A stretch of 63,816 bases of DNA, counting the filler, from Bigelowiella natans CCMP2755 (lineage: Eukaryota; Protista; Cercozoa), in assembly GCA_000320545.1 (NCBI GenBank). It is 9 parts of 9 records of this genome, joined end to end, with 100 filler letters (N's around TTAATTAATTAA, not from the genome) between each part and the next. Parts side by side here need not be neighbours in the genome. Positions count along the whole stretch, not along the records: positions 37,895 to 39,689 come from ADNK01001786.1; positions 39,790 to 45,432 come from ADNK01001734.1; 7 more parts are not named here. One strand, 5' to 3'. The position numbers and the translations under genes are program-made. Under the pieces are notes generated by a model. That model was not told the DNA's origin. It ran no database searches and saw nothing but the letters and a program-made list of their open reading frames with translations. Positions 39,529 through 45,432 of this stretch are shown piece after piece; the stretch's first letter is position 1, and the number at the start of each line of letters is the position of its first letter.

Positions 39529-39790
39529 ACTGTTCATGTGTGTGGGGGGGGATTCAAGTTCTGCTTCTCCTCTTTCCCCGCATATAGATATCCATCACGA
39601 GTAAAATTTATCGAGGATTTGCTTCTGTCAAGCGATTCAATCGATATAGTAAGATGCAACACCACGTTCTCTCTCTCTCTCTCTCTCTCNNNNNNNNNNN
39701 NNNNNNNNNNNNNNNNNNNNNNNNNNNNNNNNNTTAATTAATTAANNNNNNNNNNNNNNNNNNNNNNNNNNNNNNNNNNNNNNNNNNNNC

Positions 39791-40681
39791 TACATCGGTG
39801 ATATAAAATGCGGAGTAGCGGAGCATTTGAGGGTAATAAATGATAATATATATATCCACAACAATAAGGTATATAATTACAACCGAAAGGAGATATTAGA
39901 GAGATTACACAGACTGAGAAAGCACCTACCTGACTACAAGAAACTAAAAAGACTAATTATCACCAATCCTAATGAGGAGCAGATCAATAAAATAAAACAA
40001 ATATTCAGGTTTCATATCGTCAGGTGGACTCCAAAAGAGATATTACAAGGTTATAAGACTTTGATAGATGCTAGTAAATACAAATTAGTAGAGGGAATGA
40101 AATCTCCTGCTCTATTTAAGTTGGATTTTTACAAGTATATGAATAATAATAATTTTTTAGAGTTTAGTATCATTTATGATTTAAGGAATAGCAAAGGGCA
40201 GAAACTAAACAATATTCCATACGATACGAAGCAAACACTACTTTCCGACATCCACAAATATACAACAGAGGGTCAATATTTTAAGGTTTTGAAAAGGAGG
40301 TTTTCTTTATTACGATACGAGTATGTTTTTGAGAAGAAGAAGAGTAATAAGTCAAAGTTAATCGTTCTATCAAAGATATTAAATAGCAACTTGGGGAATT
40401 TATATCAAGTCAAAGCACTCATAGACAATCTGCTCTTCTTAATAGAGAACTTTGATGATTTAAATAAGGATAGAATAAACAAATCTATTGACGACATCAT
40501 AGATAAATTATCCTTTGTAAGTTTAAGCAAGTTTGTAAAAGAGGAGGATGACATCATAGATGATTTAAAAATGATGCTAAAGGGCAAGTCTATCGGTGAT
40601 ATGAGTGGAAACCTGGAGGATATTTATAATACCATAGGAGATATTATAAATAAAGAAAGTTATAAGTATATCAAAATATAA
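39791..40681 (+). CDS. Viral hypothetical protein, 5'-truncated by contig end
   Basis: Frame is open from the contig edge (YIGDIKCG...); motifs RWTPKEILQG, FKLDF, FLEFSIIY, YFKVLKRRFS, LNSNLGNLYQ recall a family seen in virophage/PLV-type genomes (recollection, not a search result). Confidence 0.7.
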   Translation, partial: YIGDIKCGVAEHLRVINDNIYIHNNKVYNYNRKEILERLHRLRKHLPDYKKLKRLIITNPNEEQINKIKQIFRFHIVRWTPKEILQGYKTLIDASKYKLVEGMKSPALFKLDFYKYMNNNNFLEFSIIYDLRNSKGQKLNNIPYDTKQTLLSDIHKYTTEGQYFKVLKRRFSLLRYEYVFEKKKSNKSKLIVLSKILNSNLGNLYQVKALIDNLLFLIENFDDLNKDRINKSIDDIIDKLSFVSLSKFVKEEDDIIDDLKMMLKGKSIGDMSGNLEDIYNTIGDIINKESYKYIKI

Positions 40682-40723
40682 ATTCAACCCTTTTGAGAGT
40701 CTTGAAGGTGTTGAAATTGAAAT
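40682..40723. terminator. Imperfect hairpin between convergent viral genes
   Basis: ATTCAACCCTT...AAGGTGTTGAAAT; inverted, diverged copy of 43464-43504. Confidence 0.55.
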
Positions 40724-40734
40724 TCACAACAAAT

Positions 40735-44168: not shown

Positions 44169-44189
44169 AAATAATTATTTTTAAAGATT

Positions 44190-44519
44190 TTATCCCTGCT
44201 CCAAGTTGCCTGTGACCTTCAAATCATAAGCGGTCGTTATGTTCTTGTTCGTATGGTCTATCTGTAGTGCTTGTAGTATTTGATTTATCGTATCCAGCAC
44301 ATCCGCTTTGAACGATATAATATCGTTCTTTATCGCATTTATCTCGCTCTTTATTTCACCTACTTCATTTTGTAGACTTGTGATTTCAGGTGCTTGTAAT
44401 TGGTCATTTACTTTAATTTTATCACATTCAATATCATCTAAATCAAAGTCAACATTGCCGACATTAAACTCTACTGCCTTGGTGGTCCTATCAACATTTA
44501 AATAATTCGCAAAACTCAT
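44190..44519 (-). CDS. Short fibre-like viral protein (109 aa)
   Basis: N-terminus MSFANYL resembles MSAANYF of the long fibre; central coiled coil; C-terminal LKVTGNLEQG resembles the 201-aa gene. Confidence 0.7.
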   Translation of the reverse strand: MSFANYLNVDRTTKAVEFNVGNVDFDLDDIECDKIKVNDQLQAPEITSLQNEVGEIKSEINAIKNDIISFKADVLDTINQILQALQIDHTNKNITTAYDLKVTGNLEQG

Positions 44520-44607
44520 ATTTATTATAATATACTATATAATTTATTTGAAAAGAAAAAACATTATATTTATTGAGTAATAATTATAATATTTTTTTCA
44601 ATAACAA

Positions 44608-45432
44608 TTAATTCATTTGTATAAGCATACTTTTTTCCACTTTAAAGTGTTTAGGAAGTTCCTCTTCTTTCCATTTCCCTAATTCGCTACTAATCTCAAA
44701 ATGTATTGCTTTGCTTCTTGCTATCACTAAACTATCGGTATGAGAATAAATAACATCGTCTTTGTATTCATTTATCAAACCAACCATATAGGTTCTCACA
44801 TAAGAGGTAAGAAATGGTGCTATTCTACAAGCATAGTATTTAAAATACTTCTTTTCTTCTTCAAATTTAGTCAAGGACAATATCGTATATCCATCAGGTC
44901 CTATTTTGTATGTAGGGGTTTCATTACTTTCTCGGTCATCAATTTCTATCACTTGCTTTGTGTTGACCTTTCTTCTCAACTTGGTTTGAAAAATACCCCA
45001 CAATTTATTCATTATTAGTTTTACTAAATCTTGAGATTTTGAATGAGGTAATAATCTGTGAAAGAATTTACCAAATAGTTTTATGGACTTTAATTTCTCT
45101 TTGTAATACAGATAATTGGTGTCCAACAGGTTCAATTTCAATCCTAATTCTTTTGCTTGTTTTAGTTCAAGATGAGTATAAATATTATGTTTGTTGTGTT
45201 TAAAAAATATATCATCATCTTTGCTTATTTCAACACAATACAGACCATAATTGAATTTATAATACTTGTCAACTTGTTCCTGTGTTATGGTTCTTGTCAT
45301 AGGTGTACCTAAAGGAATAGTGAAATAATTACTACATAGCACGGATGTGTATTTTTTATTCAAATCCAATTTGATATAGTATTTGTTTTGATATTCTCCA
45401 TCCACACTATATCGTATCCCACCACGACTACT
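44608..45432 (-). CDS. Family-B DNA polymerase (probably protein-primed type), C-terminal palm region, 5'-truncated
   Basis: In order: RGG, LDLNKKYTS (motif A), KLIMNKLWG (motif B), IAPFLTSYVR, YSHTDSL (motif C), LGKWKEE. Confidence 0.85.
   Translation of the reverse strand, partial: SSRGGIRYSVDGEYQNKYYIKLDLNKKYTSVLCSNYFTIPLGTPMTRTITQEQVDKYYKFNYGLYCVEISKDDDIFFKHNKHNIYTHLELKQAKELGLKLNLLDTNYLYYKEKLKSIKLFGKFFHRLLPHSKSQDLVKLIMNKLWGIFQTKLRRKVNTKQVIEIDDRESNETPTYKIGPDGYTILSLTKFEEEKKYFKYYACRIAPFLTSYVRTYMVGLINEYKDDVIYSHTDSLVIARSKAIHFEISSELGKWKEEELPKHFKVEKSMLIQMN

Follow-up and report, generated by a model that had tools for sequence, protein, structure and literature searches.

What kind of genome is represented by contig ADNK01001734.1, an A+T-rich stretch lying among ordinary eukaryotic sequence in the assembly of the cercozoan protist Bigelowiella natans CCMP2755 (GCA_000320545.1)? 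The contig is one of nine that are joined by linkers in the window analysed here, a stretch of DNA of 63,816 nucleotides, in which it occupies positions 39790–45432. The original prediction, made from the sequence alone, described it as a fragment of a virophage or Polinton-like virus (PLV) within a protist assembly, which is supported by the present analysis, the mavirus polymerase being the closest viral fold to that of the contig's polymerase family. We consider it probable that the contig comes from within a virus-like element that is present in multiple copies in the B. natans genome, most likely an already reported provirophage, and the evidence favours a virophage over a PLV.

As had been predicted, the whole contig (5,643 bases) is unlike the host in composition and organization: its G+C content is 0.317, compared with 0.433–0.490 in the eight other contigs of the window, and 94% of it is coding, with six long open reading frames (ORFs). 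The eight others carry eukaryotic genes, including those for a spliceosomal-type GTPase, an armadillo protein and a CFAP161-like protein, and a long terminal repeat (LTR) retrotransposon; none of the remaining window has a BLAST match to the contig. The predicted truncation at both ends was also borne out, since each end interrupts a gene and the loose ends of contigs assembled from sequencing runs carry on the same two genes; the contig ends are therefore assembly breaks inside the element.

Two B. natans gene models, P0202 (181/181 residues) and P0219 (657/657), are fully covered by exact 8-mers of the contig. These exact-match models bear the names aug1.41_g12510 and fgenesh1_pg.41, and both carry the number 41, which we take to be a scaffold number according to the naming convention of the Joint Genome Institute. 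Paralogous models carry the numbers 2, 18, 54, 77, 84 and 119, that is, six further scaffolds, with gene numbers that are consecutive and in the same order as in the contig (g1160-61, g18850-51 and g21414/15/17). The contig stretch or part of it was found in 20 of the 24 listed sequencing runs, from 14 studies between 2011 and 2025, some of which may belong to one campaign, and at least half of its words were present in 16 of the 24. In the DNA run X1, an assembled contig with 11 differences had a depth of 115.8 and one with 114 differences a depth of 16.7; depth is not copy number, and these values fit several collapsed near-identical copies together with one diverged copy.

To our knowledge, B. 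natans was the first reported host of integrated virophages, and Blanc et al. are said to have given the original description of these virophage-like elements, or provirophages, in 2015. Reviews count 38 such elements, of low G+C content, often truncated, six of them with terminal repeats and mostly transcribed (PMC6723459; PMC11172284). The contig comes from the same species and likewise belongs to a set of low-G+C, multi-copy, nucleotide-similar, partly truncated and transcribed elements of the nuclear assembly, and no difference from the provirophages of Blanc et al. (2015) is apparent from the reviews (PMC6723459; PMC11172284; PMC5127031). The 38 provirophages of the 2015 report very likely include the element to which this internal piece belongs, and which would hence be already known. 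The contig and its genes, with their 3' hairpins, are as follows.

39790–45432, no strand: contig ADNK01001734.1, the whole contig; probably derived from the interior of one copy of an endogenous virus that is present in multiple copies, with a gene interrupted at each end.
39791–40681, plus strand: L544/mg662-like Pol-beta-type nucleotidyltransferase gene; 296 residues, 98% identical to the 381-residue model P0018, with the first 85 residues beyond the contig end.
40682–40723, plus strand: hairpin-forming element with a 19-base motif, directly after the nucleotidyltransferase stop; a candidate 3'-end signal.
40735–41493, minus strand: long fibre gene, 3' part; 218-residue ORF from 41391, C-terminal module of type X.
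41388–43409, minus strand: long fibre gene, 5' part; 673-residue ORF, homologous in frame to about 41494, with an Asn/Thr-rich shaft and middle module A.
43448–43527, minus strand: strong hairpin after the stop of the 201-residue gene, with the second copy of the motif at 43464–43503.
43545–44150, minus strand: 201-residue gene; coiled-coil-like with weak matches, and near-identical metagenome proteins.
44190–44519, minus strand: 109-residue gene; coiled-coil-like, with paralogous models on scaffolds 18 and 119.
44608–45432, minus strand: mavirus-type, protein-primed DNA polymerase of family B (pPolB), C-terminal 274 residues; 5' end beyond the contig.

None of the six ORFs had a match in Pfam, PHROGs or NCBIfam that passed a curated cut-off or had an E-value under 1e-4, and the assignment of the element relies on more distant comparisons. 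The assignment of the last gene to the family-B polymerases, already made in the original prediction, is confirmed by the presence of motifs A (DLNKKY), B (KLIMNKLWG) and C (YSHTDS) and by the match of a profile of 30 relatives to the phi29 polymerase (E 2.8e-10). Used as a single sequence, the fragment had 0 matches in the PDB; a structure model from one sequence alone, with a pLDDT of 33, was not usable. A first search yielded only one longer homologue, a B. natans gene model with 74% identity, and a representative search returned 830 relatives at E ≤ 0.001, the best of which, P0045, has 397 residues and is 80% identical; the enzyme can be called compact, as predicted, by way of this closest full-length relative, although the contig itself holds only the last 274 residues. 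IMG/VR scans with the contig polymerase and with an alignment of its close relatives found no relative, and a metagenome scan found eight loci, short and distant.

Modelled from a 145-row alignment, P0045 reached a pLDDT of 90.2; the phi29 polymerase leads its fold matches in the PDB and the mavirus polymerase is at the top of those in a viral library (E 2.4e-25, TM 0.78). The family has the protein-primed family-B palm, no exonuclease (as judged on P0045) and a motif C without the first Asp, which reads His-Thr-Asp (in 124, 139 and 145 of the 145 aligned sequences, respectively). The polymerase of mavirus, a virus that integrates in a protist genome, also lacks the motif C Asp and the exonuclease, and such enzymes are regarded as active (PMC11161782); B. 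natans is itself listed under mavirus-like pPolB group 1 (PMC13215967). A long pPolB of the Polinton type, with an exonuclease, is not what was found, the closest full-length relative being short and without one, nor is there a fusion to an SF1 helicase, the contig's gene ending at 44608 after the thumb.

The mavirus polymerase differs in having 617 residues, with terminal-protein and vOTU domains (PMC11161782), whereas members of the contig's clade have 391–421 residues. Profiles for the two domains were built from 70 long relatives, in which an N-terminal segment is followed by an invariant Cys and His; going by the architecture described in PMC11161782, the segment would be the terminal protein and the Cys and His would belong to the vOTU domain. 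Among 68 shorter polymerases the vOTU profile was matched by six and the terminal-protein profile by P0001 only (14.6 bits in its N-terminal part, with 0 of 2000 shuffles as good), while P0045 and its clade, tested as relatives of the contig gene, matched neither. The contig polymerase appears, on these comparisons, to be a shorter variant that would work like the mavirus enzyme. A 127-residue ORF upstream of a short polymerase on IMG/VR contig L089 did not match the terminal-protein profile (−0.8 bits, 1021 of 2000 shuffles as good), in contrast to P0001, and a separate terminal-protein gene beside the short polymerase is therefore only weakly supported.

The polymerase phylogeny that the original prediction had proposed as a check was run with FastTree on 128 rows (17 of the 145 being left out as partial). 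It places P0045 in an all-short clade of eight (support 99) and contains two further all-short clades, some of the isolated short rows probably being fragments. Short forms occur both on L089, which is PLV-like, and on L090, an IMG/VR contig with a Sputnik-type capsid. On L090, positions 118–1299 (plus strand) and 3675–11272 (minus strand) hold the Sputnik-type capsid, a pair of penton genes and, after an in-frame stop, a 394-residue polymerase standing alone.

The plus-strand nucleotidyltransferase ORF was missing from the gene list of the original prediction. Its family profile has a sole PDB match, Mimivirus L544 (4amq, E 5e-4), and the corresponding Pfam family PF21655 is passed by the relative P0024 and matched below the cut-off by two more of 13 scanned proteins. 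The likeness to L544 extends over the full length of the profile and includes, in complete copies, the GS and DxD motifs of Pol-beta-type enzymes, which follow one another in the N-terminal 85 residues beyond the contig end (alignment A1, 26 sequences); the contig's family is nevertheless very distant from L544, and its subfamily is found mainly in virophage contigs. To judge by the fold family, the protein may act in RNA or DNA end modification.

Relatives of this gene are encoded by 224 IMG/VR stretches, although scans with the contig's own sequence found none, and locus counts were made on the best 80 of the 224, with ORFs clustered, one member per cluster checked, and ATPase and protease labelled by motif. 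A virophage-type ATPase, protease, penton or capsid lies in the retrieved flanks of 64 of the 80 loci, with a penton or Sputnik-type capsid in 53, while the other 16 have no virophage core gene; a giant-virus capsid occurs in six loci, all separate from the 64. The core genes that the original prediction had proposed to look for, namely major capsid protein, penton, A32 ATPase, cysteine protease and integrase, together with terminal inverted repeats and host junctions, were thus found in part, major capsid protein, penton and other core genes being present in related loci but none of the list in the contig. Among the 91 rows of a quick tree, one clade (99) unites the 15 loci that lack virophage genes, and B. 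natans P0018 groups (98) with the IMG/VR locus L003 and unlabelled proteins, outside the giant-virus clade (99); the stretch fetched for L003 carries a protease and fibre-like genes. With midpoint rooting, the giant-virus members of the L544-like subfamily form a single clade nested among virophage members, and a transfer of the gene from virophages to giant viruses is possible.

Three fibre-like genes had been predicted, and one long fibre gene is confirmed. The 673-residue and 218-residue ORFs are one gene, because the homologues P0215, P0216 and P0220 continue through the contig's frame change at 41493; for the 201-residue and 109-residue ORFs the profile libraries gave weak coiled-coil-type matches only. 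One extra base at 41493 is present in all five runs guessed to be RNA and in 178.7 of 278.9 depth in X1, with none listed in X4, and the frameshift may be either real or an assembly error. The C-terminus of P0220 is a Peptidase_S74 chaperone (E 6e-9), a domain typical of trimeric fibres. Copies of the fibre gene are alike over the first ~490 residues and then diverge into alternative modules: middle module A is combined with tail X in the contig, module B with X in P0216 and with Y in P0215, and P0218 carries tail Y together with 11 residues of A; loose ends of assembled run contigs carry alternative modules at 41926, 41371 and 40740. The occurrence of all four combinations, the fourth being a short match in the spliced model P0218, suggests recombination between fibre modules. 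The 201-residue gene, for which all matches in an Atlas search were under 0.9, probably encodes a virion fibre or spike accessory. The 109-residue protein begins with MSFANY, as do two fibre-like genes of L003, and the start motif that it has in common with the fibre gene occurs in one of the 80 loci, L003, twice.

The 19-base motif has two copies in the window against 0.02 expected, each 3' of a stop codon and on the coding strand, and no exact match in IMG/VR. Folding of the hairpin at 43448–43527 is strong (z −6.2 and −5.4, 0 of 200 shuffles as good), that at 40682–40723 less so (z −1.7, 9 of 200), and the regions after the polymerase and 109-residue genes fold no better than shuffles. Transcripts of Mimiviridae end at hairpins (PMC4402537), and it is therefore plausible that those of the contig act as 3' signals read by a helper virus. 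They are the only hint in the contig of the dependence on a giant virus that the original prediction considered possible.

Integrated viruses of B. natans have been described to mutate TpA to CpA or TpG (bioRxiv 10.64898/2026.01.13.699255). For each codon, differences from homologues were scored as reachable or not by TpA changes from the contig DNA, with ApT changes as a control. Changes of the TpA type account for 52 of 72 differences in P0001 and 68 of 81 in P0019 (ApT control 21 and 24); in P0216, taken in two parts, they account for 62 of 87 and 29 of 34 (23 and 9), and in the metagenome proteins P0020 and P0021 for 53 of 67 and 40 of 54 (20 and 15). They explain none of the four to seven differences in P0018 (0/6), P0201, P0203 and P0204, and three of 55 in P0045. 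In run X1 the substitutions are likewise asymmetric, with A>G 168 and T>C 169 versus G>A 35 and C>T 41. The contig keeps its TpA (rho 0.86) and is therefore placed on the unmutated side; comparison of the copies indicates that it is little mutated and that copies on two other scaffolds bear the published signature. In the preprint, scaffolds 10 and 146 are named, and its main text has no mention of 41, 54 or 77; beyond that work, the present family allows a gene's mutated copies to be set directly against its unmutated ones.

Tyrosines are nearly lost from the mutated proteins (one of 524 residues in P0001, none in P0019 and P0216), and the mutator seems to leave frames open while removing them. 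P0019 and P0216 extend past the contig's stop with Gln, as expected from a TAA to CAA change by TpA mutation. Metagenome records hold both the hypermutated P0020 and near-identical intact versions of contig genes (P0003, P0004, P0203 and P0204 among them), so that both the family and the mutator are probably present beyond the reference assembly as well.

Other parts of the window were compared for TpA as well. The LTR retrotransposon frame at 4801–9780 (plus strand; 1,659 uninterrupted codons with reverse transcriptase and RNase H) is not depleted (rho 1.06) and is apparently young and untouched by the mutator. Two plus-strand ORFs at 48936–49916 and 51642–52262, the latter ending in an S1 domain, share an identical N-terminal stretch of ~85 residues and then diverge; around them TpA is low (rho 0.47–0.53) and a gain of CpA is not clear. 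An RNase H gene in two long frames lies at 11194–12626 (minus strand).

RNA-type runs contain at least 19 distinct joints (nine and ten from two sets of runs, the second represented by 15 of its 19 rows), and 14 of the 19 have GT-AG ends, ten on the sense strand of a gene and four antisense in the fibre gene. None of three joints in DNA runs has such ends, for which the chance rate is 0.6% per joint; this difference suggests cryptic splicing by the host on both strands as the simplest reading. Assembled run contigs show neither the strand nor the level of RNA. Five of the ten sense introns shift the frame. Three of the joints are described below.

39833–40008, plus strand: GT-AG intron in RNA of the element family; 176 nucleotides, frame-shifting; 29 raw reads with seven starts in X22, and also in X16, X17, X19 and X20.
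41795–42121, minus strand: GT-AG intron in the fibre gene; 327 nucleotides, in frame; X15, X16, X17 and X19; one of eight sense-strand introns listed in the gene.
44363–44630, minus strand: GT-AG joint from the end of the polymerase gene into the 109-residue gene; read-through RNA, in an X15 contig only.

Reads across the intron at 39833–40008 run into sequence outside the contig, and they therefore probably stem from another copy inside a host transcript. RNA of four studies covers positions 39803–40050; past 40050 it continues outside the contig in sequence that is closely similar, with the same 15 letters in X17, X19 and X22, which suggests a stable chimeric transcript with two short virophage-derived exons.

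The assignment to a virophage has to be weighed against several points. The library scans of the ORFs and the search for terminal repeats found no capsid, penton, ATPase, protease, integrase, terminal inverted repeat or host junction within the contig, and with these lying outside it virophage membership is inferred, though with good confidence. None of the 80 nucleotidyltransferase loci has a contig-type polymerase or a match to the fibre genes; their labels come from a cluster check in which a single member of each cluster was compared with Pfam, where the ATPase gave a weak P-loop match and the protease none, and L003 owes its virophage label to the protease alone, the fetched stretch having no capsid. 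The identity with the provirophages of 2015, very likely as it is, has been drawn from reviews. As for transcription, X22 alone is on record as RNA, with about 6 in 100 of the run read, the five other RNA-type runs being guesses, and no read links expression to the contig copy. Finally, the short polymerase of L089, which belongs to the same family and stands alone, has an A32 ATPase and a DUF5901 penton-like gene as neighbours, and the second fold match of P0045 in the viral library is a 339-residue 'Harvfovirus' protein. These last two findings lend themselves to other origins. That the contig is a piece of an endogenous PLV of B. natans, or of a capsid-less relative, with acquired virophage-type genes would agree with L089, with the presence of integrated PLVs in B. 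natans and with the swapping of replication genes between virophages and PLVs on record; since the described PLVs of this species have a polymerase palm fused to an SF1 helicase, the nucleotidyltransferase family is mostly in virophage contigs and the L089 polymerase falls in a different clade from that of the contig, one that also includes relatives on L090, we regard this origin as unlikely.

A fragment of an integrated giant virus that had captured a protein-primed polymerase and also carried L544 and fibre genes is very unlikely. L544 is a mimivirus gene, 3' hairpins are a trait of Mimiviridae (PMC4402537), and the Harvfovirus match, the 16 loci without a virophage core gene and the six with a giant-virus capsid would all suit such an origin; yet the B. 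natans nucleotidyltransferase stands outside the giant-virus clade, and the large giant-virus insert of B. natans is single-copy and silent according to the preprint (bioRxiv 10.64898/2026.01.13.699255), whereas the contig's family is multi-copy and present in RNA-type runs. Least probable is a free virus of the culture, the co-sequenced alternative of the original prediction. No host junction was seen in the contig, and near-identical intact proteins in metagenome contigs leave room for free or newly integrated forms in the sea, but the paralogues on seven numbered scaffolds, the recurrence of the contig sequence in DNA-type runs across 14 years, the TpA-mutated sister copies and the GT-AG splicing point to the nucleus. 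Two further candidates were rejected: a tailed phage, for which a phage collection gave only weak phi29-like matches and the contig ORFs contain no terminase or portal, and an organellar plasmid, since fibre genes would be absent from one. An endogenous virophage accordingly remains the preferred identity of the contig; its nucleotidyltransferase relatives go with Sputnik-type capsids, which sets it apart from mavirus in spite of the polymerase.

Such an element would replicate with the mavirus-type protein-primed polymerase and build fibre-bearing particles only upon infection of the cell by a giant virus, having integrated by means of an integrase encoded outside the contig. The helper machinery, in the giant-virus factory, would transcribe the intronless genes of the element, with the transcripts ended at the 3' hairpins, while the polymerase, lacking proofreading, would start from a terminal protein supplied separately and copy a linear genome. 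Inside the nucleus, the host would transcribe the family on both strands and splice the RNA at chance GT-AG sites, and its TpA mutator would erode some of the copies; that of the contig has so far largely escaped the mutator, albeit with a fibre-gene frameshift. Tentatively, the reported 'high transcription' of B. natans provirophages might then be largely host-driven, both-strand RNA chopped by cryptic splicing, the nucleus disarming the elements twice, by splicing of RNA and by TpA mutation of DNA, while unmutated copies go on swapping fibre modules and rely for replication on a minimal polymerase whose terminal protein has been split off and whose vOTU protease is lost; we hold this to be a doubtful, though possible, reading. 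A literature search, mostly at title level and among papers outside subscription, found no description of cryptic splicing, of the L544-like nucleotidyltransferase or of the vOTU and terminal-protein features for the B. natans element. Further work on the subject includes PMC5499653, PMC6905037, PMC10120064, bioRxiv 2026.07.28.741278 and bioRxiv 2026.10.13.758929.

The element itself adds little to what is known, and it is the side results that could be useful. Polymerases of ~400 residues without terminal-protein and vOTU domains, which occur in three separate all-short clades of the tree, run counter to the statement in PMC11161782 that the N-terminal regions of eukaryotic pPolBs are extended. 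With intact and hypermutated versions of individual genes matched to each other, one can ask directly which feature singles out a copy for the TpA mutator. Should most provirophage RNA be mis-spliced, and part of it antisense, viral gene expression in B. natans would be overstated by read counts, a point that bears on the idea of provirophages as a standing antiviral defence.

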